From contig JAYWIR010000033.1 in assembly GCA_036172245.1 (NCBI GenBank), positions 1 through 64,000 on the forward strand: DNA of 64,000 nt, given 5' to 3'. The translations under genes and the position numbers were made by a program. Positions 1 through 36,892 of the stretch are shown here, piece after piece. This stretch comes from Raillietiella orientalis (lineage: Eukaryota). Below the pieces are notes generated by a model. It saw only the letters and a program-made list of their open reading frames with translations, was not told the DNA's origin and did not search any database. The stretch's first letter is position 1, and each line of letters starts with the position of its first letter.

Positions 1-2857
1 TAACCGACTGGGACAGCCTGAAACACAGGATACACCTGTTTGCAAACATGCAGGTCGGAGATAGGCGCTTGAGGCAGGAGGCGTACCGGGAGCTGAACAT
101 CCAAGATCGCTCACTCTCAAAGTACTTCGATCAGTACGAGATTCGGTACGTGTTCAAGAACATTAAAGGGGAAGTCGGCGTGCTGGAGAAGAGAAATCTC
201 GCAACAGATATCTTCTGCATCCAGTACGACGGTCAAAAGCGACAGTCGTCTGAGGACATCGTGGATGCCTTTCAAAGGCATCACACGAAACACTTTAGGC
301 GACAACAGCTGTGTCGCTCTATTCAACAGGCCTTTCTGAGCTACCTCGAGAAGAGGACCGACGATGTCCAGCGGAACAGACTGGAGGAGGAATTCTCCGA
401 AGACGAGGTGAAGACTGCGTTTGGTCAACTACGCAAGGACGTGGCAGCGGGCCCTGACAGCGTACCCATCACTCACTATCAGCGGTACTTGCATGCCTAC
501 CTGCGTTTGTTCCACCAGTTGACCCTCTGCATCCAAGAAGAAGCACGACTGCCTGAGTACTTCTACGAGACTAGGATGAGTTTGTTGCCGATAGGAGGCG
601 ACCCAACCCAGATCGCTAAATGGAGGCCAAACTGAATCCTGAACTCCGATGCCAAGTGGTTGGCGAAGATCTGGTCCAACCGCTTAGGCAAGGTGATGTC
701 GAGGCTCATCTCTCTGGTCCAAACGTGTGCAGTCCCTGGACGTTACATGTCGGACAATGTCAAGTGTTTCAGGCCACCGTCGGACTCAGCCGATATGTCG
801 GCGAGAATCTGGCGCTGGTGTTCACTGATATGGAGAAGGCTTTCGACTCCATCAACCATGGGATGCTGCTGAAGGTTCTGGACAAGCTAGGCCTTCCGGA
901 ACACTTCAGCAACTTCGTGAGGGTGGTACTCCAGAACTAGAACTGCCGAATCAAAATCAGCGGCCAGGAGACGGCAGCAATCCGGATGGAACGGGGAGTC
1001 CGGCAGGGCGATTCGCTAAGTCCGATGCTGTTCGTCATCTACATGGAGGCGTTGTCGTCCTTTATCGAGAAGAGCGGACGACTGCAAGGCATAACAATCG
1101 ATGGCCAGCGTCTTACCCATCTGGCATACGCTGATGATCTACTCTTCTTTATCAAGGGAGAGAGAAATCAACGAGCGTTTCTGGATGTGGTAGACCTGAT
1201 GGATCAAGGCCTGGGTCTTAAGATCAACGCCCAGAAAAGCCAGCTGTTGCCCGCTGGAATCGTCGATCTGTCCACTCTAGCGGGGAGAGGATTTCGAACG
1301 GTGGACAAGGCCAAGTACCTGATTGTCTACATTGGCGGCTTCTCCGCGTCGAAGCTATTGTGGACCGAGATCCTACGGAAAACGGCCAAGTAAGCAGCCA
1401 AGTACACCCGAACGGACCTTGGAATGAAGCGGAAGGCCAACATGTGGAACGGAGTACTCCTTCCAAAAGTGCTCTTCGGGGCGGCCTTCGCAGGGATGAA
1501 CAAGGAAACCACGAATGAGTTCAACAAGCTGCAAAGAAAAACACTGTGGGGCCACTATCGCCCAAGAGTCACACTAAAACCCCTGTGTCGTCCCAGGGAA
1601 GAAGGCGGTTCCGGGATGAAGTCGCTTTCACAGTCCATAGAAATCATGGATACGCGACACATCCTGGACTTTGCCACTCACTGGGATGACTGGCCGTATG
1701 CGGCGCACAGGGCCTACGCGTTGTTGTTGAACAACTCGAAAGGCCAGATGACTGCGCTGCTACTCCGAGCAGGCGAATGGAAAAAAATCGACCCAACCTG
1801 GACGAGGAAGCAGCGGCTGGTGCGGAAGCACAAAATCAAGATCGTGCCGAGAAGCAGGGAACCCTGGCAGGACGAGTCCTTCCTGGAGATCCCTTGGTTG
1901 CTTTCTGTCCCGCCGGACACGAGAAGCTGGATCTACCAGCGGTCCAGAGTTACCCTACAACGAATCCAGGAGTGGAAACGAGGAAAGGACCTACATCACA
2001 CTCGTATACTTAGGTATATAGAGATGATGTTAGGAAGGTTTACCCACATGACTCCCGAAGTGTGGTTCAACCACAACGACTTTGCGTGGTCCAGGGTAAC
2101 CAAAACAAACCTCCGAAGACTAATTCAAGAAGAACACAGTGATATCAGTGTCCTCCAGGAAGCCGCCGATCGCTACGGGAGTGTTGGATCAACCTGTTAG
2201 CGATTGGCACGACGCTCTGGAGGAGTGACCTTCCGCCAAGCACCCAGGATGACCTCCTGATGTTTTATCATGGAGGAATCCAGAGTGGGTCCCGATTGCA
2301 GCACTACACCGGAAGAAGGGAAGTTCGAGACTGCACAGCATGTGGAGACATCGACACGAGACTTCACGTCTTGACGTGTCCCACATTGCTGCATGACTGG
2401 CTGATCCTGAAAAGGATCATAGGACTTACCAACAAGTCCGTTATGGAGATCCTCGCCGGGATGTTTCATGGGGATGGTAATGTTCCCTGTTACAATCCCA
2501 TGGTGAGGACGACCAAAGCCCTCTTTATCCAGCCATACTTGTGCGGTGGTGGAAAATGAGGAAAGCCAGGAGAGCCGCACCACCGATGGAGATACTAGAA
2601 GGGCTCTTGAAGAGGGAAATGGGCATCAGGAACTGCGGGAAGATCCACGCCTGGACGTAGCGATTCATCCTGAAGAGGATCCAGGACGACGCCCGCGACC
2701 ATCCAGCTGGAATTCCCCCCTGAAAAGCAGAACTCTAGTGCAACCCAAGGACCCCCAAGTGCAAAATGTTTGTATTGAGTGAATGAGAGTGCGAATGTAA
2801 ATTTTGTATTTTTATAGTAAAATAAACTTACCCCACCCCTTGTGGGGCTTGGGGAAA
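1..2857 (+). mobile_element. L1/Tx1-like LINE, lineage A: decayed ORF2 (linker, RT, C-terminal CCHC) and 3' end
   Basis: ORF pieces with AGPDS, WRP, FTDMEKAFDSINH, RGVRQGDSLSPMLF, HLAYADDLLFF and CTACGDIDTRLHVLTC, broken by frameshifts and stops. Ends AATAAA (2821) plus CCCCAC-ccctt-GTGGGG hairpin. Confidence 0.92.
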
Positions 2858-4196
2858 CCTGCCGAGTCGGCGATGGGGCGACTGCATGCAGCGTGCTGTT
2901 GCCCGTCGCGACGGTGCTTTTTACGGCTTTCGTAGCCTTTGCAGTGGGGCCTCCGCTGCAGTGGGGCTGTCCGGAACTCCGAAGGGACAACGGAACGGGG
3001 CAAGAAGTTTTCGCACTGTTGCGATCTTCCTGTTTTCCTACCTTTCCCTCCAGGGTGTTACGGAGGTTTCCTTGTTCCAGGCTCGGAAAGGTGCCTGCGA
3101 GTTCGGCAGAGAGGGAAGGCACGGCCCGCGTGAAACCCTCGCGCCCCTTTTTAATTGGCTTCCCCGACGTGACTTTCCCCTTTCGGGGCGTTGCGGGCGG
3201 GGATGCTTTCTTTTTATCCGCGGATCGCTCGTGGTTTTTTTCGAGTTTTTGCGGACGACGTTTTTTATTTGCCGCTGCGGCTTTTCGTGCAGTGGTCTCT
3301 TGAACCCGACGAATTTCCGCTGCGGCTCTTTTTCTTGCAAGTACCGGGCACTTTTTAATTTCGTGCCCGGAATCTTCGCAATAGCGGCATCTTGGAGAGG
3401 GCACTCTTGAATTCGGTGCCCCTCCTTGCCTCACTGCTCGCACGCGCAAGTCTGGCCTATGAACCACAGGTGAACGACCGTGCCGTTCACCTGCAGCTGC
3501 TCAGGCACAATACGCCTGTTCGCGACGGTGATCCGCGCGGAGGCTTGTCCAATGTGGACAGAGGGGAAATCCTTAAGAGGATTTGGCCTCCTCCACAGAG
3601 CGTGCACGGTGGCGAACTTCGCCAGCACACTTACGACATCGCGGTCGGAGATTTCCGGTTCGATGTCGCACAATTGAACGACAAAAGAGTCGTCCATCGC
3701 GGTAGGTAGGACTTCCTTGCCATTGATGGTGAACGGCGTACGGAGAAGGCGCTGCACAAGTGCTGCGTTCTTGCACCGAATCTTCGTATATTCCATCCTG
3801 CCAGCAGGCATTATGGCAAGGAGTTCCTCTTCGCGAACGTCTATCCGGACGAGCTGATCATTGAGCTCACGACCGATTCTCCCGTTACGTGGCCCACTGA
3901 CCTTATAACGGAGTGCAGGCATGTATCCTGATGACACATATGCTTGGAACTCCGCATCGCAGGGTCCTGGTCTTTGGGAGGTAACGGCAGCGTAACTCCG
4001 CACCGGGGGCGAGGAAACCATTACGGAGGATGCGGCCACTTCAAGTGCAGCTGAAGTGCATCCAGTGGCTTGCTCCTCCACACTATCCTGTGTACTGGCC
4101 ATGTTGCACTATGCTACTTGGCAGATTGCACAGGAACACACAAGTGCGAGCGAAAACGCAGGCACAAAGTTGCCCGATCGTTGGCGCGGATAGACG
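2858..4196 (-). mobile_element. LINE lineage B: 5' UTR and ORF1 (gag-like), interrupted by the 3' end of A
   Basis: ORF 3431..4102 (RSYAAV, HLWFIG) and 2595..3467 with knuckle CRYCEDSGHEIKKC; homologous to other ORF1s in the window. Confidence 0.88.
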
Positions 4197-5120
4197 CGGA
4201 AACACGTCTGCACTGTTCGAGCGCAGGAGATCGAACGGATCTCCGGAGTGCGGCTATGGTACTGGTGTGGGAGAGCGAAAACTTGCGGTGTCGCCTACCT
4301 GCTTCGGCCAGCCGTCGAGGTCGCGGCTCGGGGCGTGCGGTACGACGATCACGGTCGTGTCGGCCAGCTGACTCTCAGGTGGTCCGACTCAATCGATCTG
4401 ATCGCCACAAACGTGTACGCACCGGGCGAGGAAAGAGTTTTTCCTTGCCCTGCGGCGAGACTGGCTGACCGAAGCAGGCGTGCAGAATGCCCATCTGGTT
4501 GCAGGAGATTTCAACGTCCGCATGAAACCAGATGATCAGAATCCCGAGCGTGAACTGGTCAACGAGGTGTGCATGGCGGTTCACACCTGCAATTTGTTGG
4601 CCGGTGCACCGGGGATGGAAGACAGCATTGACCACGTGTTTCTTGACGAGCACCTGTGCCCTCGCGTGGGCAGGCGCGGAAAGTTACCGTGCGAGCTGTC
4701 CGACCATCGCCCGCTAGTCCTCGAGATCCATCCGCGCGACAGGGGCCCCCTCTCGTCAGCGTGGCGTCTCCCAGGGGACTGGCTAAAGCTCCCGGATGCG
4801 GCGAAACATCTCCGCACGTTCATACGGAGCTTCAGGCTGCGGACACTCCAGGATTGGGACCGCTTCAAGCGGTCGGACCAGGAGTTCTGCGACCAGTTCC
4901 CTCTGCACCGCCTAGCTACGGGTTTTGGGACCGGGGTCCGTAGCGAACGAGCCTACCTGCAGGCCCGTCGTTACGCCAGGACCCCCGACATCCGCAGGCT
5001 GGCGGAATACAAAGCGGGAGCCGAGAGGCGAGCATGGCAGTCCGGTTCAGCCAGCTTACTGGACTATCAGGGCCAAGAGCACTCGGCACCTGCCCAAATC
5101 CGCGTCCTGCTGCCGAGTTA
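4197..5120 (+). pseudogene. ORF2 APE endonuclease and linker fragment, resuming at the (Q)ETH motif
   Basis: GRVGQL, NVYAP, AGDFN, DHVF, SDH, FPLHRLATGFG. This copy is uninterrupted at the GFG site. Confidence 0.9.
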
Positions 5121-5476
5121 CTACAATCTTTATTGTTCAGAGAGTGAGCGCGCCTTTTCAGAGGGGATGAGCGCTCTCCATGTCAAAGTGGAGGAGCACA
5201 GCGCTGTGACCATCCGCAGAGGGGGTCAGTACTTGAGGTCATCTGCAAACATGCAGAGCAGGCCCAACGACTGCTAAAATACCCCGTGGTGTTGAAGACG
5301 CGCAGAGTACTCCATATTACGGTGGATTGCAGCATGGTGGTTCACCTGTTAGGTGTTACAGCGCCGATGCGAAAGGAACAGGTTCGAGCCGCGTTGGAGG
5401 AATATGGAGCGGTGCACGCGCAGTGGGAGAAAGTTAGTGCTTCTAAGGACTACATGAGGCTGCAACACGGCCTCAT
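5121..5476 (+). repeat. ORF1 fragment of lineage C; inverted near-copy of about 16320-16660
   Basis: Long matching stretches; shares the frameshift (cagtacttgagg) and small deletion of the 16 kb copy relative to 49020-49390. Confidence 0.85.
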
Positions 5477-5489
5477 GCTGTTTACAATA

Positions 5490-7772
5490 GCGGCAGGCTT
5501 TTCGCCTGCCGCTATTGAAAACAGCTCGGCCACTCCATCAAAGAGTGCGCCGAGCTGAAGAGAAAGCGGACGGCGAAAAGCCGCCAACAATTGACCCCGT
5601 CCGCGCCGAAAAGATCCCCCGTTGTACCACGGGAGAAATCGGGCGCGAAGGGCGGGGCATCTTCGAGTGGTGGTCTTGCGAAAAAGGGCGCGGTTGCTTC
5701 AGGGAAGCCACCATCCCAGACAACCGCGCAGACAAGAAAGATGCCACGTCGCCCTGGGGCCAAATAGATCCCTTCGAAGCAGCCTAAGAGTGCATACACG
5801 CACTCAATCAAGGCTGCTAAACCGTCCACGTCCGCTTGCGCGTCCAGCGGAGCACACGGGAAACCGTGCGCGGGTAACCTCGGAGCTGCCTCTGAACGGC
5901 AGTCTCCTCATACGGCGGTGGAGATCACGTCTTCCACGCCGAAGGCACGAGCAGCGAAGGCTGCAATAGCACTTCGCGGGACGACGGCAATGACCGGCGT
6001 TTCGCCCGCATCGGCTAAGGAGCAGGTGCAGTGTGTAACGGGGACGGAGCCGTCTCCCGCCGCGAGCGCGAAACGTGAGCCGGCATCTCCGGCCAAACAA
6101 TTGAGGGAGGCCTCGGCCTCCCAGGAGGGCGTCCCCGACGCGGGCTGGACTCGCGTCTCCAGGACGCCCACAAAGGGGAAGAAGAAGTTTGACCCTTCAA
6201 TATTCCCCATCCGTAAGGTGGGTGGGAAGCAAAATATAAGCACGCCGAAGGAGGTGCGTACCCAGGTACGCACTACGGCTGCGTGCTCTGTCTCCGTCGC
6301 TTCGCGCGAGAGGGCGGCTGCGGAAGCCAAAGCTCCGGAAGCTGCGTTGGCGACTGCGACGACCCCCGCGCGGGCAGGGCAAGCCTTCACCTGCGGAAAC
6401 AAAAAGAGACTGGCAAAACGTCAGTCTCGCGCCAGGCACTGGGACTCCGAGGTGGAGTCCGAGTCCAAACAAATGGAGCGCGCATCCCGGGGTAAGCCGG
6501 TAGCGCGCCGGGCTCAAGTGCGAAGGCACGAAACTGTTGCCAAAGGCGGTTCCGGCTCCAGCACGGAGACCGAGGCGATGATCCTCGGTTCCCAGGACTC
6601 AGCTGTGCGCGATGTGGCGGCGAACGGAAGCGATTCCGCTTCCCCATCCGCTCTCCTACCAGCTGACTTCTCGCCGGACGGGGCGAGGAGCACGCTGTCA
6701 TGTCCGCAGCAGTCATGCGTGGACTCGCGTCCGCTCGTCGCGTCAGCGTGGCCTGTTGGAATGTCAACGGGCTACGTGATGCTGACAAAAGGCGGACGGT
6801 AGCCAACGCTTTGCGCGCGTTCGATCTGTTGCTGCTGCCGGAGATACATAGCATCTCCGAACGGCAGGCATCGGATCTGGAAGAGCGCGCGGGCGGGACG
6901 CTACACTGGCGGCAAGGCTCCGCGCACACGTGCGGAGACGCGTTGCTCGTCCGAGGCAGGGTGGCGGAGGCGGTGCGCAACGTTTGTTTCGACGAGGAAG
7001 GTCGTGTGGGCCAACTTGTCCTCAAGTGGTCCGAATCGATCGACCTGGTCGTTACGAACATCTACGCGCCGAGCGGCGGCCGCAATTACGCCCAGCGACT
7101 TGCATTCCTGGGTGGCGTGCGCAGCCGCTGGCTCGCTGACTCCGGCCCTAACGTGGCGCACCTCCTTGCAGGAGACTTCAACGTCCACCTGCTAACCGAG
7201 GAGAGATGCCGCTTGAGGGAGAAATAACTGGTGACCGAGGTATGCGCGTCCGTGCGCGTGCAAAACTTGCTTGCTGGTGAGCCCGGGATGGAGAGATCGC
7301 CGGACCATGCGTTCCTCGATGAACACCTGCTCTCAAGAGTAGGTCGGAAAAAGCGCCTGCTGTCCGCGATCACGGATCATCTGAGACTGGAGTTCGAGTT
7401 CCTCCCGCCTGGCAAATGGCCTCCGATGAATGTCTGGAGATTGCCGGCCGACTGGCTCAGCAATTCGGAGGCGGCAGAGCATCTTCGCCAACACCTCCGG
7501 GGCTTCGCCATCCGTGAACTCGAGGACACGGACGATCTGAAAAGATCGGTCCGCGAGTTCTGCTGCCGGTTCCCCTTGCACCTGCTTCCCCGCGGCTTCG
7601 GGGAGGGTGTCGCGAACAGCAGATCCCATCTCCTGGCGCGTACCTTGTCTTGATGCCCGGAAGTCCGGCGTCTGGCGGAGTACAAGGCCACGGCCGAGCG
7701 CCAGGTTTGGCAGTCTGGAGCGGCTTCTTTGCTCGATGACGCTCGCCAGGAATGCTCGGATGCATCCGAAGT
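5490..7772 (+). mobile_element. LINE lineage G, 5' half: ORF1 C-terminal part and APE
   Basis: Knuckle CRY*KQLGHSIKEC near 5507, low-complexity ORF1 tail 5918..6700, APE from ATG 6700 (CWNVNGL, NIYAP, AGDFN). Stops at ..ARQECSDASEV. Confidence 0.88.
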
Positions 7773-10421
7773 TTGTCACCCGGATATACCGGGGCATTTA
7801 TTATTCTAACTTTTTACAAAGATTAGATAATAAAGTCTTTAAAAAGATGTTTTCTGTGGGGAAACACTGGGTTCTCCCACCTTGCTCAACGTGTCGGTTG
7901 CCTGTGCATAGACCGGTAAGGTCTATTCCCGAGGCGCATGGGAAGGCAAAACTAGAACAAAAACAAACAAAAAGAGAGATAACGGGGAAAGAAACACTTA
8001 TATGTGGAGAGGGGGGGAAGGGAAGGGATCACTGGGCGCCTGGGTCGGTCCTCCGCATCCTGTTAAGAATGCAGTCAAGTTCGCTTTTTATTCTGAAAGG
8101 TAGACGCCACCTTGTCGCCGTCTCTATAGAGATCGCCGTCCAGTGGATGGCGTCCATGCATCTTGAGCTTCTTCTTCTGACGAGCCACCTTTGCACAATC
8201 CCGCGCACGCAGCAGAGGACTGCTAGAGACGGAGCGGAACGCAGGCCGTCACGCAGAAAGAGGCGACGGTAAATTTCCTCAGGGTCGCCTACTGGAAGAT
8301 GGAGGATTGGGCGAATCGACTCCAGAGTCCATCTAGGGCGACCCATTCGAGGGTGAGATGCGGGAAGGTTTCTCTTTCTCCGCACTCGACACAGCGGGCA
8401 TCCACATTCCCCAGTGTCCAGTGAGACAGGCGTGCTCTGCTTAACAGTACCCAGTGCAGAAATAGCAACGCCGTCTCCTGCCACTTCAACGGAAGTGTGC
8501 CGCAATCCCAACACGCTGGGGGCCACTTCACCTCCTCCAAATGTATCGCAAGCAGCACTCTCCAGCACGCAAGTCCGTGAGGCGGGACGCTCGGGGTTGC
8601 AGCGTCTGTGAGCTCCCGAGTCGTCCACGCCTTTAAAGGTTTTTTCCTGCCCCGGATGAGGCACGACACTTCCCACGATTCCCGCTCGTTGCTGCTCCTA
8701 GTGTTTTTTAGGAAGGACAGAACGGGGGCAAGGGGTCTGAAAGAAGCCAACAGAAAATTCCGAAGCGTTTTGATAATCTCCTGCAGCGGCTGTCGAGCGT
8801 ACGGTCCTCGTCGTAGGCAGTTGTATTCCGCCTCGCTCGTGCCGTTGATCTTAGCCCACGCGAAGGCTGACTCCTAAAGCCAAGCAGTGCAGTTCTCTGG
8901 GAGGCAGAAGATCCAGGTATTCTCCCTCATCAGGACGACCATTTGGCGCAAATCGGGGCCACAGATGGAGAGTCTGCGCTGGTAGGCCACGAGGATCGAG
9001 GACAATCCTTCGCAGCCGGTCGCTCTTCTGGCGAGGAGCCGTGCTGGATCGCACCATGGCGTCATCCATGAGCTAGCTGCAAGGGCGAACTTCCGAAGTG
9101 TTGTTTGTAGTTGGATGCGCTCCAACGTAAGGAGGCCCAAGCCACCATCCCTGCGTGGAGCGCAAAAGTCTTTCAATCGGACTCGCGAACTCTCTGTGCC
9201 CCAAATGGCAGTATTCAAGAGTGCTTTGGTCCGTTTCTGTTTGATGGGAAGGGCGGGGCAAACAGAAAGTAAGGGGCGAAGGAGAGAGGCCGCGAACGCG
9301 TTCCACACGGCGGCCCGCTCCTGCAAGTAAAACTTGCCGTTCCGGAACGAACCGATCGCGAACTCCACAATTTGGAGACGATCGGACCAGGCTTCTGCAA
9401 CGCAGTATTATCCCAACGGAACCCCAAGGTCCTTGAAGCACCTGCTTGTGGGGTTCCCCAAGAGGATCCAGTCCACCCGTCCGGCTCACGCCGTATTTCT
9501 AAAAAGGAGTGAAGATGTAGGAACGATTGTGGATTTCTCTCTGTTTACCTCGAGGCCCGTTCCTCGGCGCAGCAACTCAAAGAAATCTTCGAGCGCCGAC
9601 GCCGGGGTGGATCCAAGGAGCAGGAGCAGAAGGTCTTCGGCGTAGGCCGACACGGCAGGCGTGCCGGGACGCGAGCTTGGCAGGGTTGCCAGAGTCTCCC
9701 TGTATGCGCTCAGCACCAGCTTGAAGTAGATGCTGAAGAGCAAGGGGCTCAGACTGTCACCCTGCCTTATGATACGGCGAACCGGCACGCCGTACACGTG
9801 CCGGACGCTGAAAGAGATGTTTATTTGAGCGAAGCGTTAGCAGAAACGTTGGTAACCCCCGAAGACGGCCGGGAATACCAAGCGTTCCAGGAGCTCCAGA
9901 AGGAGTTCCTGGTCGACGCAATCGTACGCTTTACGCAGATCGACTGCGACCGCAAGGGCACCGGGCGCGGCTCTTCCATGAAGGGCGTCCCCTCCATGGT
10001 CAGAGGAGAATCCAGGATTCTATTGACCTCCCTCGTCTTCGCTTTGTTTCAACTGCCACCATGTACTGGCGAGGAACAGGTTGGCCTCCCTGCTTTGTCC
10101 GGGAACTGCGTATGTCTGCTCCGGACTCACCACGGATCCCACCACCCGTCCCAGTCGCTCAGCTCAAAGCTTGGCAAGCAACTTCGCATTTGCATTCATT
10201 ACTGTGATGGGATGCCAGTTGCCTACGTTGCGATTGTCTTCTCCTTTCAACCGGAGACGTACTATAGCTGACCGGAACTATTTGGGGACGTCCTCTTGTT
10301 CTCGGATCAGCATGCAAAGCCGATGCACCAGGGGAGCCAGCTCCGTCACGAATCCTTGGTGAAACTTTGCGGGGAGACCGTGTTCCCCTGGTTCTTTCCT
10401 TTTTCTGAGCTTTCCGATTGC
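7773..10421 (-). mobile_element. LINE lineage D, 3' half (RT, C-terminus, 3' UTR), decayed
   Basis: RQGDSLSPLLF, YAEDLL, CVECGERETFPHLTLE; inverted near-copy of about 60900-63552. Confidence 0.92.
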
Positions 10422-11988
10422 GAGACGGCGGTCGGCCCGTTCCTGGAAGGCAAGTTTCACTTGCCAGAACGGGCCGCGGTTTGAAACGCCTTCGCATCCC
10501 CCATTCTCCGCCCCTTGCTTTTTGTTTGCTTCGCCCCCGTGAAATCGAAAGCGCGGACGAAGGACCTCCTCCGCATAGCCCTTTTGGGTAAGGGGAGGGG
10601 CCGAGTCCCTTTGAAGAACCTGTGCGCTCCGCGTCGGGACGGCGGTCTCAACATCCTGACGCTGGAGCGCGTGAAAATCCAGCTGCGATGGCGAACCCTC
10701 CTCATCGCATCGAAGCTGTGGAGCACCGCTTGGTGCATTTCGGCCCTCCTCCTGGCCAGGCGTGTGTCCCGCATTGAAGAACTCGCATCGTTCCTTTTGT
10801 GCCCTGGCCGGAAGTTTCGAAGATGCGGTCTACAGCTCGGCCTCATGGTAACCCTGGCAAAGGAGAATGACTGGATGGTTTGTGGCCCCGCCAACTCTTC
10901 CGCGTGACTGGAGGAGTCTGCTGGCATCTGCACCAAGCAGAACCAGAAGTGCGAACACCGGATGAACTGCCTGCGAGTCGGCATTTACGCCCGCCGTACT
11001 CTACGTTAAATTCTTGAATTTCCACCGAGTTGCAGGTGGGTGGAAGGCACATCCCTTGTTACGGCGATGCTTTTCTTCCAAAGGGCGCTTTACGAAAGCC
11101 AAGAGCCAAGGTGGCAAGTCTGCTGCCGTATCGCAGGCAGAGAGAAGATGAGGAGCAGCTGGACCATAGGAGAGTTGACAGATGCAACGACTCCTAGTAT
11201 CCAGCCGCGTGGATTAAGAAGATGGGGCGAGCTGCTCGGCATTCGATTGGATGATCTGAAGTGGCCCCTCGGTTCTACTTGGATCCAGGATTCTTGCCCT
11301 GAAGTGGCAAGAATCGGCGCTTCTGTGGCTGCATTGGGGTCTACCTTGCAACGCGCGCCGCTTCCGCTGGACGCGGGGAAGAGTAAATCCTGCGTGTGCA
11401 AGGTGTGGGGAGTGGGAGTCGCTCCCTCACTTCTTAGTTGAATGGCCTGCCGTCCGGATTCTTTGAGATCGTCTCAAAACGGCCCTTAGGATACCGGATG
11501 GTGACAACTTTGGATGTGTTTACAGTCTTGTCTTCGTGCGGGACGCCCTCAGTCCAGCCGCAGTTCTGGCAGCACTTTGCTGCATTCGTGGTATCGTGGC
11601 GGCCTGGAGTGATGCCGAAGATGAAGATTACATCCTGAGGGACGTCATCGAATATGCTGTTTGCTTTCTGCAGAGAGCTACCCGATGGCCACATCTGGGA
11701 AGAATGAAAATGGAACTAGAAGGCATCCTGCAAAGGATGGCCTCCCCCAGCAGTTTTCTGTGATCCCTTCCCGGCCCTCTAAACTCCTTTTGTTGTTTGT
11801 TTTTTTCTTTTTATTTTATTTTTGTTTTCTCTCCCATCCCCGTCTAATGCCGAGGTGAGCCACACCGGGCTGCTTCTTGGTGTCTTGGCAGTTCCGGTAT
11901 TGCGTGGCCGTCAGTGGGGCCTTGTACTAAGTTCTTTATTGACTGTAGAAATATTTTTAATAAACGTCCCAGCGTATCCGGCTGGCAT
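10422..11988 (+). mobile_element. E-like LINE: 3' part of ORF2 and 3' end
   Basis: GKFHLPERAAV, LCAPRRDGGL, TGATCCCTTCCC at 11761, AATAAA at 11959 plus degenerate hairpin. Confidence 0.9.
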
Positions 11989-13198
11989 CGCCTAAACCTG
12001 GAGGAAGAAGGTTCAGGAGAAACTGGTTGCAGAACTCGCGGACTGAGCTCTTCAAGTCGTCCCAGTCCGCAAGCGACTGCAGATGGAAGCCTTGCAGGAA
12101 CGACCGAAGAAGTTGCGCTGCTCCTGCGGGGCGCAACCGGTACCCTGCGAAACGTTACGCTCTGGAGGGTATGCCTCCACCGCGCGGGTGTATTTCTTGC
12201 ACGAGCCAGGGATAGTCGGAAAGTTCAAATGGCACTGCCCCACGATTTCCCACCCGCGAACACAGGTGGTTGTCGAGGAACATGTGGTCCATCCTCGTCT
12301 CCGTCCCGGCGTCACCGGCCAACTTGCGCGCGTGCATGGCAGCGCGCATCTCGTTGACCAGCTGTGCGCGAATGTCGGGCGCACCTGTGAGCAGGCGGAC
12401 GTTAAAGTCCCCGGCAATGAGGTGCGCCTTTCGCATCTCTGCTTCGACCAGCCAATCTCGCCGCAGGCCTTCGAAGAACGCAGTGCTTTCCCTGCGCCTG
12501 TGGCTCGTGCTGGGCGCGTACACGTTGGTCACAACGAGGTCGATCGCGTCGGACCACTTGGCAACAAGGTGCCCGATTTGACCTTCCCCGTCGAAGTTCA
12601 CGTCCCACAGCGCATTAACCACGGCTGGCTTGAGCATGAAATCCACACCGCGGGTGCTGTCTTTCCCGTTTTGGTATATGAGCCGCCCGCCTGCGATCCG
12701 TTCGATTTCCTTGGCCTCCTCTGCGTGGAGCACGTGCGTCTCCTGCAGAAGCGCCAGGACGAAGTCCCGCAGGCTGGCGGCCACTTCCCTCCTCTTGCCG
12801 TGGTCGCGCAACTTGTTGACGTTATAACAGATTACGCGCAGTAGCCGGCAGGAGGAGAGTCCACGCGTTGGTGTGTTTATGGTGTTTGCTTACCGTCCTC
12901 CGCCTGATGTCCAGCAGGCGGGAGTTGTGTGTCCATTGCGACGGGCTGTTTCTCGCAAGAGGGTTTTCGGTCGGTGGTTGTGGTGGTGGTTGGAAGATCC
13001 TACTTGGCCTGGACCGCTTCCGGCGAGGAGTCGCGAGACCTCGCGGACATCGCCTTTCCGTCGTCGTGGTCCGACCGCATTTCCTCCTCCGCCGGTTGGG
13101 GTGCGGAGCGCCGCGGGTTGCCTACCTTGCGGCCCGCTTTGCGCTTCGAATGAGCGACAGCCGAAGCGTTGCCAGATACGGCTTCGGACTCGGAAGTT
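11989..13198 (-). mobile_element. LINE lineage D, 5' half: ORF1 tail and APE, ending at the GFG site
   Basis: ORF 12155..12811 (LQETH, NVYAP, AGDFN); inverted near-copy of about 53715-54926. Confidence 0.92.
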
Positions 13199-15808
13199 AC
13201 CGAAGAGAAGGAACGCGCCAGATTGGATTGCCACTTCACGGCGGAAGAAGTATCTTCCGCAAAAGCGGGCCTAAAGAGGCATAAGGCGCCTGGGGAGGAT
13301 GGCCGGCCCACGGAGTTCTTTCAATGCTTCGCGGCGGAGCTCGTGCTTCTGGTGCAGAGCCTTTCCTCGCTGATGCGTGAGACGGAAGATGTTCCTGCTA
13401 CCTTCCGCTTAGCTAAAATGCGGCTCTAGCCGAAAAACGGGGATTTGCGTCACCTCAGCAACTGCCTTCTGATCACCTTGGTGAATTTGGACTAGAGCTG
13501 TTCTCGAGGCTATGGGTCGCGCGTCTAAGGAGAATCGCGGAGTCCTTGGTAAGTCCAAAGCAGACGTATACTGTTCCGGGGCGGTCCGTGAACGCAAATC
13601 TCTTCTTCGCGCGAACATGATTCGAGTTGCAGCAGCGCGTGGCGCAACAGAGGCAGGCAGCCGAAATCGCCGCTGCCAAATGTAAGCGGCGGTGTTCAAG
13701 GCACGATGGAAAGCCAAGAGCCATAGCGGTCGCCGTCGATCTCTGCAAAGCGGTCGACAGAGTAAACCAGACCTCCTTCTGGAGCTTCTAGGATGCCTAT
13801 TCCTTTCGATGCACCCCATCGCCTACTTGCACGTCTGCTAGCGCCATGCGTTATGCTGTAATTCTTTCAGGGGGCGCCACGTGTACGGCATTCCCATACG
13901 GCGGGGTATCACGCAGGGAGACAGCTCAAGCCCCTTGCACTTCAGCATCTTCTTTGAGTTGGTGCTGAGGGCGTACAGGCTGACGCCGGCCAACCTGTTG
14001 AGCTCCATCCCTGGAACACCGGTCGTGGCTGCCTATGCTGAGGTCTTTCTCCTGCTGCTGCCCTTGTCAACCCCGGCTTTCAGGCTTGAGGACTTTGAGC
14101 TCATTCGTCGGGGAGCGGGCCTGAGCGTCAACAGGACGAAGTCAACCGTTGTACCGGTTGGCTCTACATGGTAGGAGCAGTCGGACTGGATCCGCCTGGA
14201 AATCCCCACGGGCAGGTGCTTTAAGTACCTTGGCGTTCCCTTGGGCGCCTTCTGTCCTGCATAAGCGTGGTCGGACTGCCTTCACGAGGCCGCGACTGCT
14301 ATGGGCCCGTTCCAAGGCGGCAGGTTTCTTCTGTCGGAACGGGCCTCCGTGTGGAAAATTTTCGTTGCCCCCCTTCTCCGTCTGCTCTTTTTTGTTTGTC
14401 CCCCTCCCTACTCGGCTAAGCGCCGGGCGCAACGTGTGCTGCGGAACGCCCTGTGGGTACCGGAGAGGTCCAGGATACGCCTGAAAGACTTGGAGGCTCC
14501 TCGGCGGGATGCAGGATTGGGCATCCTGACGCAGGAATGGATCGGCCTGCTAGTGCAGTTCCGCATGCTGGCACTTTGTGCGCAGCTCTGGACTACTCCC
14601 TGGTGTGCTCCACCGCGGCTGCTGCTGCGGCGCTGCACGGTTGGCGACGGACTACGTTCGTTGCATCTGCGCACGGAGCGCGCCCAGGGAGGATTCGGCT
14701 TCCCTTTAAAGAAGCTCTCCTCGTTTCTAAGAATGCATGAGTGGATCTCCTGCCGGCCGACGAACTTCAACGCCTGGAGGCAGGATGATTTCTCGTCCTG
14801 GGCAGCGCAACAGGATGTGTTTCGTTTGGAACTCCGTTAGGTGAAACTTTCCCCATACTGTCTTGCTGGGGAGGTGCTAAAGACCAGAACCATTGGAAAC
14901 GCCTAGCCGCTACGTTACTCGCCGAAGCACTGTGTGCACTGATGGTGCGAGACGACAGTAACCTCCCTGCGCGTTGGGTGATTGCTTGCGAAATCTCAAG
15001 CGAAACCCGACTGCTGAGCGGCTGGCGGACTTGCGAAGTGGCAGACGCTGTTACACCTCGTATTCTTGCAAAGGGGCTTCTCCGGTGGAGTGAGCTCCTC
15101 GGGGTGCCCACCGATGAACTTGTGGTCTCTTCTGCGTGTTTGGACGCGACTCTCTTCCCCCTTGGGTGGAAACAGGACGCTTTTCTGCTGGTGCATTAAG
15201 GTTTGTACTGCAATCAGCGGGCGCACCTGATTTCCGGGGGAGATGCTTCCCCGAACTGTTCCAAATGCGTAGCCATGGAATCGCTTTCGCATTTGGTGTT
15301 TGAGTGCGGTGCCCTCTAGGAGCTGTGGCGGCGGCTGTCTTCAGCGCTCCTGCTCCCTGGACACACCGCACTGGATTGGATGCGCCGCTTCTACACGCGT
15401 GGCGGTCTTTCTCTTGGAACGGTCGTCGCAATCATCTGCTGCGTCCGCGCTATTGTCAGGACCCACCACGTATTGCAGATGCGAGCAGTCCCAACATCGG
15501 TCCCCGACACCGCAGCCTGCAACCTGCAAATGGCTGCCGGGTGGCCGCACCAGGGAGCAGAAGTGAGGGCGAAGATCGACGGCATTCACCGCCGGTTCTG
15601 AGAATAGGAACGGTCAGACTGCATACTTGTGTTTCCGCCTGCCCTCTTAATTTATTTATTTATTGTCCCACCACCTCCCGTTCCGAACTCTCAGTGTGCC
15701 CGGACTGCGTTCCGGGAAATCTACTCCCCATTTTCTGTTCCCCTTGCCTGGGAAAACAGTTCCCAGTTGATATTATGAATCAACGTCCCGGCGCAACCGG
15801 GTAATAAA
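13199..15808 (+). mobile_element. LINE lineage G, 3' half (RT to 3' end), decayed
   Basis: KAPGEDG, RRGITQGDSSSP, AAYAEV, terminal CCCGG-cgcaa-CCGGG hairpin; inverted near-copy of 49883-52480. Confidence 0.9.
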
Positions 15809-16992
15809 CGATAACGCTGCATTCCTTAATCTGCTCGCTTGCCTGCTTTTTTTTCTGACGGTACGCGAGCTTTTTCTTCAATCTCCTCTCTTTTTTTCAC
15901 TTTTTGGCCGTTGCCACCTGCCACTCAGGCTCCTGGCTAGTTATTTCGACTTGTCAGGCGTTATTCGCAGGGGTGTCGGGTGCGGCCTGGGCCTTAGGCG
16001 CGGGTGGCACAGCCTTCGCGGTAGCTTTCGCCGCCAGCTTTTTCTGCAGCAACCTGGCGCGATTTTGAAGGTTTCTCTTGGATGCCATCCGCACAGTTGG
16101 TTTTGGACACAACTCTTATGTGTGGCCCATTGCCCGCAAACTTGGCACTGCACGTTGGGCTCCTCTTTTTAAGGTGTGGTTCGACGTGCTGCAGAATCCT
16201 CAGTACTTCGGCTTTCACACATACCAGAGGTCGAAGGTTTCAACGCCGAGCACCAGTTTATGGGGAAGAGTGCAGCCCTCTCGAACGGTTACGCGTGCAG
16301 CCGTGAGGCCGTGTTGCAGCCTCATGTATTTCTCAGAAGCACTAACTTTCTCCCACTACGCGTGCACCGCTATATATTCCTCCAACGCGGCGCGAACCTG
16401 TTCCTTGCGGATCGGCGCTGTAACACCTAACAGGTGGACCACCATGCTGCAATCCACCGTTATATTGAATAGTCTGCGCGTCTTCAACACCACGGGGGAT
16501 TTTAGCAGTCGTAGGGCCTGCTCTGCATGTTTGCAGATGACCTCAAGTACTGACCCCCGCTGCGGATGGTCATAGCGCTGTGCTTCTCCACTTTGACATG
16601 GAGAGCGCTCATCTTCTCTGAAAAGACGCGCTCACTCTCTGAACAATAAAGATTGTAGAGCAATGAGGGGTTATACCACTCGTCCACGTTGTCTGATAAT
16701 CCCGCCTCGGCTGCAGGCGACGGCGCCGCCAGAACGGCGCTTCACGCCCGCGCTGCAGTGGGGACCGATTCTGTGGGGACGTATGCCCCCACCTCCATCG
16801 CCTCTCTGGACGACGTTGCCGCCGCCCCCTGGCTCTCCTTCGCCTTTGGGGGCGGCGTTGCCACTGCCCCCCTGCCTTTTCTGGTAATCGTGTCAGGCAT
16901 CGCTTCCACATCGACCACCGAACAACACGACGCTTGCACTAAGGGAGACTTCCTGTCACGAGGAGCACCGAGAAAACACGTCCGCCCTAGAG
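15809..16992 (-). mobile_element. LINE lineage C: 5' end and ORF1
   Basis: CQVCG knuckle remnant; 5' motif GGCGGACG (reverse complement at 16979-16986); homologous to 48730-49882. Confidence 0.85.
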
Positions 16993-18245
16993 CACACCAG
17001 GCGTACGTCTGCGTGAACCAGGATCTATTGCTGGAGCTACTAGGTCGCATGGGTTTCCCACCCTCCTTCATAACCTACCTGCGCTCCTGCTGGCGCAATG
17101 TGCTCATCACTGTTACTTCCAGTGGACAAAAAGTGTATCTCGTGCCGGTACGGCGGGGTATGCGGCAGGGCGATAGCCTGAGTCCCCTGCTCTTTAGTAC
17201 CTACTTTGAGTTGGTGCTGAGAACGTATAGGGTGACGTAGGCCTCCTTACCGAGCTCGTGCCCCGGCACGCCCGCCGTAGCAGCTTATGCTGACGATCTT
17301 CTGCTGATGTTACCCATGTCCACTTGGCAGCCGCAGTCGAGGAATTCTTCGAGCTGCTAAACCGCGGGACGGGACTGCAGGTCAACAGGGCGAAGTTGCC
17401 GGTGGTGCCAGTTAGTGCGACGTGGGCAATGCAGCAGGACTAAGTCTGTTACGAAATCCCCACGGCGAAGTGCTTGAAGTACCTTGGTGTGCCGTTGGGG
17501 GTCTGTTTCCCTGCGGAAGCGTGGTCTGGTTGCCTCCCAAAGGTTGAGACGGCGATCGTTCCGTTCCTGGAAGTCAAGTTTTACTCGCCGGGACGGGCCG
17601 AGGTTTAAAACGCCTTCGCGACCTCCATCCTCCGCTTCTTGCTTTTTGTTTGCTGCGCCCCCGTTGAAGTTTAGAAGAGGACAAAGGACCTCCTCCGCAT
17701 CGCTATTTGGAGCAAGGGGAGGCGCCGAGTCCCTTTGATGGACTTGTGCGCTTTGCGTCGGGACGGCGGTCTCAGCCTCCTGACGCCGGAGCGCTTGAAA
17801 ACACAGCTGCGATGACGCATCATGGCCATCGCAGCAAAGAGATGGAGCATCCCTTGGTGCATTCCATCTCGCCTTCTCGCCAGACGTGTGTCCAAGACTG
17901 AAGGACTCTGCAACCGGCTGCAGAGGGCTGCTCAGGATGTATCGTGATTTCCTCCCTTTCCCCCCCCTTTCTTAAAGCACATTGCCTGCCTTGGGCGTTT
18001 TTCTTTTTTTCTTTTTTGTTGCTTTATTTTTGTTTTTTCCGCCCTTGCGCCAGTGTGGAGGACCTTATCGGCCTACGGTCCGGTATGGTCAAGTTCTTCA
18101 AGACACTCGAATCATGTGTTCCGACTTTGAAACAAATCAATGAGAAAAAAAAATAGTTTTATTGACAAGCTAAGAAGACTTTATTATAAGAATTTCATTG
18201 TAAAAATTTTTAATAATAAAAGCCCCGGCTGACCTGAGTGAAAAA
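16993..18245 (+). mobile_element. ORF2 RT fragment (lineage Cx) resuming at HxAxDCVDQ, joined by deletion to an H-like 3' end
   Basis: VNQDLLLELLGRMGFP, RQGDSLSPLLF, YADD; AATAAA at 18215 plus degenerate hairpin. Confidence 0.85.
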
Positions 18246-18633
18246 CCCCCACACTGCAGGATAAGATCTTCAAAGTCTTCCTTAACTTCAAATCTCTGGA
18301 CTTCATTGGCGAACGCGCGTAAGGTGTTTCCAAGAACTTGGCACCTACCTTGTGTATAATTCTGCACATGCAGCTTGTTGCCTTATAGGCGGTGGCTTTC
18401 GCTGGGGCTTCCTCAAATAGCACGAAGCCCCAGTGGAGAGCATTCCGTAGGAACGGTAGCTTGCACATCCTCCACATGCAGCGAAGATTCGCCTTCCGTA
18501 CTCTAATTTCGATCGCGTTGTTTACAGGCATCGCTCTCATGGGACATAGGCAACACTTTGAACGTACACACACCTAAACAGAAGTTCCCAGACACAATTT
18601 TTGCTCTGTAGCGTGGTGCAGACGCATCCGCTC
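18246..18633 (-). pseudogene. Old ORF1 N-terminal fragment with element 5' end
   Basis: MPVNN.., LRAFANEVQRFEVKEDFEDLILQCGG aligns with RAFSKALQNANVLEKDLDGLSVLSGG of E; 5' motif GAGCGGATG. Confidence 0.65.
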
Positions 18634-18730
18634 AATATACGTTTGGAGAAGCATTAAGGAATGAAGCGTACCTAAACAATCGTTCCCATTCCAGGACACC
18701 TGACGCAGGTCGCCTTGCTAAATATAAAAT
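18634..18730 (+). pseudogene. ORF2 linker fragment resuming at the GFG site
   Basis: Translates TFGEALRNEAYLNNRSHSRTPDAGRLAKYK, homologous to GFGGGLRNDRAY..SRTPDDRRLAEYK at 60578. Confidence 0.75.
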
Positions 18731-19640
18731 CGTTGAAGACAAAACCCACAAATAAAACACGAAAAACAAAGAAAACTAAGAGAGCGGTGTTCTTCGATGA
18801 GGGAAGGGAAGTGAACACTGCTCGCCACGGATGGTGTTCTGCATTAGGTTCAAGACGCAGTCAAGTACAGGTGCTAGAGTTTAAAACCAGTGTCATCGGG
18901 AGTTTCTCTCCATGGAATGGCATTCCGGATGTTGCAGACGATCATCAATGCAAGCCACTTGTCCAGGATTCCGCGCACGAAACAGAGAACTGCCATACAC
19001 GCGACTGCTGGCAAGGCGTCTTGGAGCAGGGAGCGACGCGGAATGTTCTTTCTATGGCCAACTGACAACGCCCGATTGCACATTGGAAGGAGGGTTGCAC
19101 ACTCGATTAGAAGGTACGGGAAGGAATTTTTCTTTCACCAGAGTCTGCACAACTGGCATTCACACGTTCGCGAGTCCAGTAAGAAAGGTGAGCTTTGCAA
19201 AGGAGTCCCAAATGCAACACAATCAACTCATTCTTTTGCCACTCTAAGGATAGAATGCAATTGTGCCTACGCTCTGAATACCACTTCACCTTACTTTGAA
19301 GGTATTGCGCGCAGCTCCTACCCAGCATGCCCAGTGCATGAGTCCCCCAGTTCGGATACTCGGAGTTGCAGAGTCTTCTTGTTACCGAGTTGTCCACGCC
19401 TTCAGGATTTTTTTTCTGCGTTTTATGTGGCAGCAAGCCTTCCACGAGAGCCTACTGTCCTCGCGGACCGTTACGCGCGCAGCTCAAAACTTGCTAAATA
19501 GCTATGCAACGAGAAAAAACGTAGAGTGTCTCTCATCCCGAATAGACCGTGTCCAATTTTGCAAGTTTACTCTGCACAGCGGGTTTCTTCATGCGGAGTA
19601 TCGATCCGGTAAGGTCGCCAAATATCGTTGTCCAAAGTGA
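18731..19640 (-). pseudogene. Heavily decayed ORF2 C-terminus and 3' UTR
   Basis: LEWQKNELIVLHLGLL..LSYWT..CADSGERKI; AVLCFVRGIL. Confidence 0.75.
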
Positions 19641-19899
19641 ACGGGAATATGAGGCGTTTATTGAACGTGATAAAAGTTCGTAGCTGTTGTTTAGTGAACC
19701 CTACACATACGCGGTTCAACTCTACAAAATGCTTTCCGCTGCGTGCGCATTAGCCGATTGCAAGAGACTCAGGTATCTCCAAGTTTTTGGGCCCCTGCAA
19801 GGGGAAGCGCGTCGTCGCGCGGAAAACGAAGCCGTCTACCTGGTGCAGAAGGGTCAGGTTGTATTCACTGTCTGCTTACTCCCGCTATCTCGCCGCAAC

Positions 19900-20425
19900 G
19901 GCTGGTTGAGCCGCCGCAATCATGAAACTAGAAGCCCTTGCCGAGGTAGGGAAAGCTTTTTTTTGCGGCGAGGACCCGCACTTCCATGGAATAGGGAGAT
20001 GAAATTCCCTCGTCTCCCTTCGCCAATGAGGCTGCGTTAACTGGCATTTTTATTCCGAAAGAGTTGGAGTTGCGTTACGTCGCGTGGATAATCGCGAATT
20101 TTCAAGTTTCAGTAGTAATGGATGCAAAGGCCATTCGCACTGCTGTTCCCGTCGGGCGGATCACGATCCAGCGATCCACCGTGTACGGAAGGATATTGCG
20201 GTCCTGGTTTTGTGCGGGTGCGCAGAGCAGTCTGCGTGTCAGGGCTCTTTATGGCAGATTAACTCTCCGAACTGCCTTTCGATGCGTACGGAGAGGCACA
20301 CATTCTCCGCATCTTTCGAGATCAACTGGAGAACGGTATTTCCGAATTCTCGTGTCCCAAGAGACGGACAAAGATTGCTCACCTTATACACAAGACGTGT
20401 TCAAACCATCCAGTATGTGTTACAC
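19900..20425 (+). pseudogene. Heavily decayed APE fragment
   Basis: AWIIANF resembles AHLIAGDF, with a downstream tggaga WR remnant; similarity is weak. Confidence 0.45.
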
Positions 20426-21500
20426 TTGAGTTTGGCAGGGATTTCTTATTAGAAATTTTATACAAAAATTCAATCATGCATACGTCAATATTGTTTGTTA
20501 CGTAATAGAACACTTTGTTGTACCACGCTTGGAAGACTTGCCTTGAAACGGTACTTAGATCGATGAGTTCCGTTTGAGCAGCGAAAAAAGAGGGGAAAAC
20601 CAGAACAAAAATAAACCAGCAAAATTAAAAAAGGAGGAAAATGTTCTTGGGGGAAGGGAAGTACAAGGAATGTATTACTGTTGATCTTGAGTGGTCCTCG
20701 GCATCATGTTGAAGTTACTGACAAGCATTGCTTTAACGGGATTCTGTTGGGTCCACCTTGCGCTGTCTCCATAAAGATCGTTGTCTCGTGGGTGGCGTCC
20801 CTGCTATTATGTCTTCTTTTTTTAGCGTTCCACCTTGACACGATCCTGCATACACAGAAAAGAACTGCTAGAAACGGAGCGCAAGGAATTATGCATGAAG
20901 AGGCACCGGATAATGCCTACAGAATCGACTGTAGCGATCTTGACGATCAACGGAAGTCGACCACAAAGTGCCCAGAGGGAGACGCAGTCCATTAGGAGAT
21001 GGAAGAACACTTTCGCCGCACTCTGCACAACGGACATTCACACTGAAGTGTTCCATGATAATGGCGTGCCTTTTATGGGGTTTCCCGATGCAACAACATG
21101 AAACCCGTCTCCTGACTCTTCATGAAAAGATACCAGTGTTCCGACGCGCTAAGGGTCATTTCGCCTAACCCTGAGGTATTGTGAGCAGCTCGTCTCAGCG
21201 CAGAAGTCCTTAAGATGGGACGCTCGGGATGGCAGCGTCAGATAACTACGAAGTTCTTCACGCCAACAACAGTTTTTTCGTGCATCATATGGTACAGAAC
21301 ACTGCTACAATGCTCGATCGTTGCTCTGCCTAGCGTTCCTAAGGGAGGACAGCATGGAGGCAAGTGAAGTAAAGGAAAGCCAAAGGATCTCGCGTGGATT
21401 CTTTGCAATCTCCTTCAAGGGCTCCCGGGCGTATGTTGCTAGTGGGAGGCAGACATATTCCCTTTCACTCGAGCTGTTGATTCTTTCCCTTGCGAAAATA
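20426..21500 (-). pseudogene. Heavily decayed D-like ORF2 C-terminus and 3' end
   Basis: Collinear similarity with 7800-8850, including the A-rich reverse complement of the T-rich UTR and a degenerate terminal motif near 20425-20450. Confidence 0.65.
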
Positions 21501-21949
21501 AATTCCTGAAATCAGGCACCGGTTCGCGGAAAGGCAGACGGTTCACGTATTCTCCATCACTAGGGTAGCCTTCTGGAGCATCTAAGGATTCCATTGGATA
21601 TTGCTGCGTTCGTAAGACACGAGAATGCAAGAAAATCGTTCGCAACCGGTTGATCTGCTGGAAAAGAAACGTAGGTTTTCAACGATCGCATTGTGCGGAA
21701 TTTTGCCGCGAGGATGAGTACTCGATATTGAAGCCGCCGTTATTGGATGCAGGCTTCGAATTTCGCGGCCTCTTCAGGTGTTTTTTCTTTTTGTCTCCGC
21801 GCTCGCTGCTCTCGTCGGAACGGCACAGAACCATTGGGTGTTAGGGCATGACCCTACTTCATAATCTGAATGGACGTCGTCCTTGCGCCTCCTTTGAGAA
21901 AAGTTGTCGCGCTCTTAGGTATTCGTGCTCTCTATCGGCCGCAAAAACA

Positions 21950-24183: not shown

Positions 24184-24709
24184 TCAGTGTACTCGGAACA
24201 TATCCAGTATTTTTGCCAGGGTTGAGCCTGAAGCATAATCAAAGCACAATACGTTATCAAAAGATCCAAGACACACATGATGTATACGTGGATTCAAACT
24301 TTCCAAGCATATTCCTAATGATAATTGTGAGTTCTTGTTTTCTTGTGTAACGGGAACATCATATGATGAAATAAAGAGTAAAAGAATGTCAAATATCTTT
24401 ACGAAACTTTTTCCATTGTAAACAAAGTGATACATGGAAACGACTGTTTTCGAAAAATGCACCTTTACACTTCCCACATAATTCAAAGAAGACAAAGCAA
24501 TCAGTTCCAAATAGTTAAAATCAAACCACGCTTTTCCACGTTTCTAGAAACTTCTCATCAACAAAATAAATAGCAACACTGGTGTTCAAAGTGCAGCGTA
24601 TCCGAACACACGCAAAGAATCGAATTAAAACATACCTCCGAGATACACCTCCTTTAGGTTGTAGGTAGCAATCCCCATTGAATACATTCACAGTGAATTC
24701 CGCAATCAT
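24184..24709 (-). other. Possible host-gene exons (unidentified)
   Basis: Two adjacent AT-rich ORFs (108 aa and 62 aa) with a candidate short GTATGT..CAG intron near 24581-24635; no recognisable domain. Confidence 0.2.
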
Positions 24710-36880: not shown

Positions 36881-36892
36881 AATCTTCGTGGA

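Follow-up and report, generated by a model that had tools for sequence, protein, structure and literature searches.

Site-specific long interspersed nuclear elements (LINEs) occupy safe havens such as ribosomal DNA, telomeres, small RNA genes and, in the case of Tx1, a DNA transposon. R1 and R2 share a 3' junction that is precise to one nucleotide, variable 5' ends with truncations, small deletions or duplications of the target, and the presence of several lineages at one site. The specificity of the R1Bm endonuclease is treated in parts of an earlier report (PMC1919474). In Xenopus, Tx1L inserts into Tx1d DNA transposons, and the Tx1 group comprises site-specific LINEs of the L1 clade, at least in the portion of the overview cited here (PMC6719617, citing Christensen et al. 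2000). Zepp and ZeppL of the green algae Coccomyxa and Chlamydomonas form nested, often 5'-truncated clusters that target existing copies (PMC8226300, PMC3446292), which shows that LINEs are able to target others of their kind, and the exact target is not named in the parts of these reports drawn on here. Here we describe a 64,000-nucleotide stretch of the Raillietiella orientalis genome (assembly GCA_036172245.1, contig JAYWIR010000033.1, positions 1 to 64,000, forward strand; hereafter the window), in which two copies of a LINE family termed D are each interrupted by a copy of a second family, E, at the same nucleotide. The two inserts, E_left and E_right, probably represent separate site-targeted insertions into two D copies, by which the same nest was rebuilt independently.

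The window resembles the Tx1 system in containing L1-like LINEs with an APE-type endonuclease that have another transposable element as fixed target. It differs in that the target is a coding motif within sibling LINEs, which is entered in antisense orientation, and in that several families are linked in a chain. With Zepp it shares GC-rich, L1-type LINEs with gag-like and reverse transcriptase (RT) open reading frames (ORFs) and nested, often 5'-truncated copies, as far as the cited parts of the Zepp reports describe them. Zepp arrays consist mostly of 3' ends, and those same parts name no fixed nucleotide target, whereas the insertions in the window are antisense, lie at defined codons, lack poly(A) and involve several families; this comparison is by description only. 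The exact 3' junction, variable 5' ends and several lineages at one site recall R1 and R2, whose targets, in contrast, are multicopy host genes and not retrotransposons. R2 further differs by its restriction-like endonuclease, and it matches E far less well than human L1 ORF2p does, which is the best relative of solved structure (PDB) for the most intact ORF2 (E = 1.6e-14 and 3e-51, respectively).

Recurrent junctions at the linker between endonuclease and reverse transcriptase

The entire window consists of LINE copies nested in one another, with existing copies as targets. LINE debris makes up two GC-rich blocks (approximately 1-18 kb and 38-64 kb) on either side of an AT-richer, more decayed centre. 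In a self-BLAST, left 7324-17907 is the inverted match of right 64000-47815, and left 5-4902 matches 41821-46654 in direct orientation. The right nest reads G(+), Cx(-), F(+), C(-), D(+), E_right(-), D(+) and C(-), where it leaves the window, and the left nest repeats this series in inverted orientation. Every insert is antisense to its host. The map was drawn by tblastn with the intact right-hand element as ruler, boundaries were then read at the junctions, and all results on sites and junctions refer to a handful of junctions in this single window.

E_left (10422-11988, plus strand; placed by tblastn map, 3' motif and 5' junction) is a 5'-truncated E-like LINE of 1567 bp, which starts at approximately residue 54 of the C-terminal ORF2 fragment and has the 3' end ...AATAAACGTCCCAGCGTATCCGGCTGGCAT. 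Its host D_left lies on the minus strand and is split into a 5' part with the ORF1 C-terminus and the APE domain (11989-13197; Exo_endo_phos, 2.7e-07; APE 91.4% identical to D_right), terminating at the GFG codons (CGCCTAAACCTGG on the plus strand), and a 3' part with RT, C-terminal domain, 3' untranslated region (UTR) and GGTGACAA tail (7773-10421). The right nest contains a full-length element of 5651 bp, E_right (54927-60577, minus strand; placed by Pfam, tblastn, boundaries and flanking duplication), with an ORF1 at 58727-60538 (603 aa, zf-CCHC) and an ORF2 in two overlapping frames at 56580-58778 (APE and RT) and 55132-56637. This otherwise intact ORF2 is split at 56580-56637 into 732 aa and 501 aa by a single frameshift or assembly indel. 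D_right, on the plus strand, comprises a 5' part with a 5'UTR starting at GCGGACGC, an ORF1 with zf-CCHC and the APE domain (52586-54926), and a 3' part with RT, a C-terminal domain (weak zf-RVT), 3'UTR and GGTGGCAA tail (60578-63551). According to Pfam, the APE and RT domains of D fall on separate halves of the host.

Both E 3' ends meet D after the same base, the last of GGTTT(C/A)GGCG, at 11988/11989 in the left and 54927/54926 in the right nest, identical to the nucleotide. In D_right the junction reads ...CCAGGTTTCGGCG followed by TTGCCACCCGGG, and in D_left ...CCAGGTTTAGGCG followed by ATGCCAGCCGGA. The target corresponds to the codons of LPPGFG (P-P-G-F-G), a linker that separates APE from RT and is conserved in all families of the window. 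E_right is flanked by a 10-bp target-site duplication (TSD), GGTTTCGGCG (54917-54926 and 60578-60587, plus strand), a 10-mer found at these two places and nowhere else on either strand of the window, and translation over the joined halves of D_right restores the frame, with ...LPPGFG continuing into GGLRNDRAY. The 5' end of E_left is joined to D by GAGAC-type microhomology, and D_left lacks approximately 312 bp of D beside this junction when compared with D_right. The TSD of E_right and the 5' truncation of E_left are footprints of target-primed reverse transcription and mark both as LINE insertions.

At the same GFG motif in another host lies the 3' end of a third E-like lineage, Cx_right (46683-48730, upper end approximate, minus strand). 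This host, G_right (45931-46682, plus strand), is an APE fragment interrupted at the motif. E_left, E_right and Cx_right are mutually 70-74% identical at the nucleotide level, with ratios of nonsynonymous to synonymous divergence (dN/dS) of 0.37-0.41. The G_right paralogue G_left (4203-5178, plus strand) runs uninterrupted through the motif and represents an empty site (GGTTTTGGGA, 4921-4930). A third interrupted APE at 4928 was considered and rejected, as the DNA match to D ends at the interruption of D and the protein match continues to residue 401. The hosts D and G are only approximately 66% identical in this region, yet they are hit at the same codon. In a fourth case at approximately 38372, the 5' end of the E-like element Z (from approximately 38373, plus strand) abuts Y (37907-38372, minus strand), the 3' part of an E-like host that starts at the GFG motif. 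A BLAST high-scoring pair (38224-40213 with 60726-58731) runs unbroken through this junction, which equals the 5' junction of E_right and D_right. Site-specific LINEs insert independently at one and the same nucleotide of a defined target, as E_left, E_right and Cx_right do.

Apart from the small sample, nothing favours a chance meeting of untargeted LINE insertions at one place. Three independent 3' junctions at one base and in one orientation within hosts of approximately 6 kb are expected by simple inference at an order of 1e-8, and together with the shared codon in hosts as dissimilar as D and G they effectively refute such a coincidence. Mis-joined or collapsed repeats could likewise yield a mosaic with apparently shared junctions, and the region is wholly repetitive. 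We regard such an assembly artefact as very improbable, since the copies differ by 9-30%, which is enough for assemblers to separate them, the footprints are coherent (a window-unique TSD, a restored reading frame and microhomology), and the same junction recurs in four different sequence contexts.

Divergence and selection in the nested layers

Left 10421-13197 aligns with right 56478-53715 in inverted orientation at 80.9% identity overall. Identity amounts to 90.7% on the D side of the junction (1097 of 1209 columns) and 73.8% on the E side (1140 of 1545 columns; Fisher p = 3e-31), and the 2-lnL interval of the maximum-likelihood change point, 11957-12235, contains the junction. The preliminary description of this locus, made from the letters alone, had placed the D APE pair at 90-95% identity, the E pair at roughly 80% and the E insertion at the same position in both nests. 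The measured values agree for the D APE (11989-12892; 826/904, 91.4%) and for the junction, which is the same nucleotide left and right, while the figure for E averages a mosaic. Within E, identity is 85.4% (340/398) at 10422-10820, which makes up the first ~400 bp, only 68.7% (641/933) in the coding part at 10821-11754 and 74.2% (158/213, with 22 gap columns) in the 3'UTR at 11755-11988. The first ~400 bp appear neutral-like, with a synonymous divergence (dS) of 0.19 and dN/dS of 0.78; over 10820-11760 (68.5% identity), dS is 0.97, dN 0.30 and dN/dS 0.31 (confidence interval, CI, 0.23-0.41). RIP-like (repeat-induced point) mutation was rejected as the source of the uneven divergence, transitions being about as frequent as transversions (175/179 in E).

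The two E copies switch from near-identical to long-diverged at approximately 10800-10850. The source of E_left therefore had its upstream part in common with the E_right lineage and carried a long-diverged module of C-terminal coding sequence and 3'UTR, presumably acquired by recombination between lineages or by template switching. Alternatively, gene conversion after insertion could formally have replaced the 3' 1.15 kb of E. Over its first ~400 bp E_left is of the E_right lineage, so that the two inserts are strictly different elements only in this 3' 1.15 kb. Cx_left, an E-like RT fragment (16995-17907, plus strand), begins at RT motif A and adjoins the 5' end of F_left. It abruptly loses its similarity to every E-like copy at 17907 (approximately 10784 in E_left), and this point of ORF2 may be a hot spot of recombination or deletion.

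The dN/dS of the layers was estimated by the Nei-Gojobori method, with out-of-frame controls and 200 simulations of neutral decay at the observed base-specific rates. The E pair as a whole has a dS of 0.61 and a dN/dS of 0.41 (CI 0.32-0.54), and none of the 200 simulations was as low (neutral null 0.85 +/- 0.12). Its differences are distributed over the three codon positions as 119/81/154 (p = 1e-5), and the out-of-frame controls gave 0.85 and 1.6. The Cx pair (approximately 16995 and 48728) is 70-77% identical, with 70% identity, dS of 0.64 and dN/dS of 0.43 in the C-terminal part of ORF2 (ORF2b). The C and D layers are approximately 90% identical. Pooled D is near neutral (dS 0.125, dN/dS 0.68; null 0.88, p ~0.02), and pooled C has a dS of 0.137 and a dN/dS of 0.62 (p ~0.005). 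Further layers comprise A (approximately 90% identity), an ORF1 pair of B (85%, dN/dS 0.26), F (78%, dN/dS 0.54) and G, which at 81% identity and a dN/dS of 0.84 is neutral yet not low in divergence. The low ratios in the divergent layers imply that these diverged under purifying selection as active lineages and not in place.

The preliminary description had predicted low dN/dS and high dS for the E and Cx pairs and a neutral, low divergence for D and G. This pattern was found for E, Cx and, at near-neutral level, D; G is neutral as predicted but not low in divergence. A uniform, neutral divergence of all layers, the outcome named there as refuting, was not observed. The synonymous divergence that had been seen between the Cx hosts was likewise borne out, whereas the element that abuts them at the same point is the 5' end of F and not C. 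In the direct-repeat block 1-4900 / 41817-46650, which comprises A, B and G, identity is also layer-dependent, with approximately 90% up to 2500, 68% from 2500 to 3300, 85% from 3300 to 4000 and 79% from 4000 to 4900.

Relative age of the two nests

Differences between the nests were polarised by at least two agreeing outgroups. Derived changes on the left and right number 20:5 in the 5' part of E, 49:16 in the D RT, 62:15 in the C RT and 39:12 in the D APE (all p <= 0.004), i.e. the left copies of C, D and E carry 3-4 times the derived changes of the right copies. This asymmetry is reversed in G (24:72, the right copy being more decayed), and Cx shows 64:87. A regional excess of the mutation rate on the left was therefore rejected, the asymmetry of G being opposite. 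Such layer-specific asymmetries indicate that the nests are not duplicates of the same age, since duplication at the DNA level gives equal ages and a regional rate affects all layers alike, and neither account agrees with the counts. Read most simply, the left C-D-E nest is the older one and the right nest was assembled afterwards, from active C, D and E lineages that evolve slowly and on hosts that differ in age.

These ages bear on the strongest competing explanation, in which an ancestral C-D-E nest was copied by inverted segmental duplication, gene conversion by a diverged E donor located elsewhere later exchanged the 3' 1.15 kb in one of the E copies, and two deletions on the left took away the 5' junction regions. 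All comparable junctions are identical, as a duplication would leave them, near-neutral divergence is similar in C, in D and in the initial ~400 bp of E, and the high-divergence tract stops at the 3' end of E, the point at which homology to a donor from another context would run out. Equal decay is, however, expected of copies of equal age, whereas the left C, D and E 5' sequences are 3-4 times more derived and G shows the reverse. Moreover, both left gaps span the passage from insert to host on the 5' side of the insert, as in 5'-truncated insertions, and the dN/dS of the C and D pairs falls under the simulated null (p = 0.005 and 0.02). A duplication would still require a diverged E donor and would leave Cx_right in G_right and the junction of Y and Z unexplained. 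We consider it unlikely on balance, and retain independent, site-targeted insertion as the more probable origin of the two nests. The layer tests, the differing 5' ends, the additional sites and the ages all support the proposal of the preliminary description that the layer order was rebuilt by independent targeted insertion or replacement.

Several observations weigh against independent insertion. The C and D pairs, like the opening ~400 bp of the E pair, diverge near-neutrally and to a similar degree (dS 0.13-0.19), as after duplication of a C-D-E segment, and the dN/dS of D (0.68) and C (0.62) lies only modestly under the neutral null (0.87-0.88 +/- 0.12). Both 5' differences on the left could be later deletions. 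The GFG site of E itself (GGATTCGGCG) is empty in E_right, although it deviates from the target by one base. The outgroups used for polarisation are distant and left 28-36 ambiguous sites per comparison for C and D, and 33 for E. Specificity rests on three independent 3' junctions and one 5' junction, all from this window. Finally, the consensus fold of the 3' ends contains a conserved 5-bp stem which is invariant, so that covariation lends it no support.

Target choice and element families

In the proposed mechanism, the E group is site-specific, and its endonuclease would nick the sense strand of the ORF2 of another LINE after GGTTTCGGCG, with a second nick 10 bp upstream of the first. Target-primed reverse transcription would start from the GGTTTCGGCG nick, and priming at this nick would place E always in antisense orientation with its 3' end at that base. 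The flank 3' of E-like ends inside LINE ORF2 would be CGCCGAAACC-like and that of D ends ACTTCGGCTGC; putative nick-site sequences are CCAGGTTTCGGCGGAGGGC for the E_right APE and GCAGCCGAAGTGTACC for the D APE. The E lineages that gave rise to E_left and E_right would by then have diverged in their 3' 1.15 kb under purifying selection. D itself occupies a fixed site in C, and F-type elements lie at RT motif A in hosts that are E-like or C-like. Fixed targets for each family would cause the same nest order to be rebuilt wherever the hosts occur. Since D and E share a 3' tail and differ in target, target choice more likely resides in the diverged endonuclease than in pairing of the tail with the target. 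To judge from the sequences, the endonuclease probably supplies the specificity, and all layers, not E alone, appear to have been inserted independently.

The two nests share the base at which D enters C, the sense strand of C reading ...GCAGCCGAAGT followed by GTACC (7773/7772 in the left nest, 63551/63552 and 52585/52586 in the right), with a TSD of only ~2 bp. The hosts are C_left, whose 5' part ends at 7772 and whose 3' part extends over 13198-15870 (plus strand, end approximate), and C_right, with its 3' part at 49840-52585 (minus strand, start approximate) and its 5' part from 63552 to beyond 64000. D_left also lacks 1.1 kb of its own 5' end and approximately 104 bp of C. W, a C-like copy (41647-40763, minus strand), is uninterrupted at the D site at approximately 41440 and represents an empty site. 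A second recurrent junction lies in RT motif A (..AVD/LxKAFD, the slash marking the junction) at 16985-16995 and 48728-48738, where the 5' end of F (GCGGACGT...) abuts the E-like host Cx in both nests. In addition, a C-type 3' end (..CCGGGTAAAAA) abuts W at the RT motif A codons at 40763. The RT motif A junctions suggest a further family that has a fixed target of its own.

Two copies of a 355-bp segment of F ORF1 face each other in inverted orientation across the left C-D-E nest (5121-5475 and 16304-16658, 93.8% identity), and a short palindrome (CAATAGCGGCAGGC...GCCTGCCGCTATTG) lies at 5480-5520 beside the first of them. The left nest is thus rearranged at its left edge.

Judged by similarity, the elements read as nested, L1-like non-LTR retrotransposons with a gag-like zinc-knuckle ORF1 and an ORF2 with APE and RT. 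Pfam identified Exo_endo_phos endonucleases, RVT_1 and gag-like ORFs with zf-CCHC in the window, and the E_right ORF at 56580-58778 shows the order of APE (Exo_endo_phos, 5.2e-10) before RT (RVT_1, 5.1e-22) that defines such LINEs. C-terminal zf-RVT matches (25.3 and 16.8 bits) are below the Pfam cut-off of 27.5. A 3' poly(A) tail is typical of L1. It is absent here, all readable 3' ends stopping at GGTGGCA(A) with no A-run. The E and Cx copies, the D copies and one copy at 33359 have a common 3' end of AATAAA, a CCCGG/CCGGG stem-loop and GGTGGCA(A) (GGTGGCAA), which a motif search recovered four times against none expected. C-type 3' ends differ and finish with ...CCGGGTAA... Two older elements, from 18236 onward and at 33359, carry a variant tail, AATAATAAAAGC(C/T)CCGGCT(G/A)AC..., and the flank at 18235 encodes on the opposite strand a weak sequence resembling an APE C-terminus that ends ...LILQCGG. 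The element at 18235 may represent a further insertion at the GFG site, in a host that has diverged strongly.

Rfam, tRNA and tandem-repeat scans of the window revealed no rRNA, tRNA or telomere-like target; the sole tandem repeat is a perfect 37-bp, two-copy repeat at 26674-26747. No gene is recognisable in the centre at 18000-38000 (40-48% GC), which holds only LINE fragments in a badly decayed state and, in addition, an inverted repeat (26091-26592 / 31052-30522, 72.5%). Among 20 ORFs of this AT-richer centre (18-38 kb), Pfam gave a single sub-threshold match that is presumably spurious. The protein search recovered one close relative (P0001, 71-72% identity); all other matches, including a Xenopus RT protein at 29%, reached at most 29%, and none bore the name Zepp. 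An Atlas look-up gave no more than a hint of Chlorophyta, for one cluster. In a metagenome scan, relatives are encoded in 172 of 473 stretches, of which 80 were kept, all at most 34% identical and hence too distant to bear on target specificity.

More tentatively, the window may contain a guild of related L1-like LINE families, the endonuclease of each being directed to a fixed codon position of a different member, an extension that we think slightly more apt to fail than to hold. In such a guild, E-like elements would target the GFG linker, D a position approximately 60 codons downstream in C, F-type elements RT motif A, and C the ORF1 of F. As insertion would always be antisense, each insertion would kill a competitor. 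The nested, Russian-doll order would then be rebuilt deterministically at every place where a host copy comes to lie, and self-growing LINE islands could serve as centromeric or heterochromatic cores.

Searches of open-access text, which did not cover the original Zepp paper (PMC1169995), found neither a fixed antisense target in the ORF2 of sibling LINEs nor a chain of such specificities. To the example of nested LINE clusters, the window adds a target defined at the base-pair level, directly after GGTTTCGGCG in a conserved ORF2 linker, together with its orientation, a TSD and at least three diverged lineages that have kept their aim. If the pattern holds genome-wide, LINE-only islands, as candidate centromeres, would grow with reproducible order and without segmental duplication, retrotransposons would compete by mutual inactivation, and the families concerned may provide a new set of natural, sequence-specific APE endonucleases.

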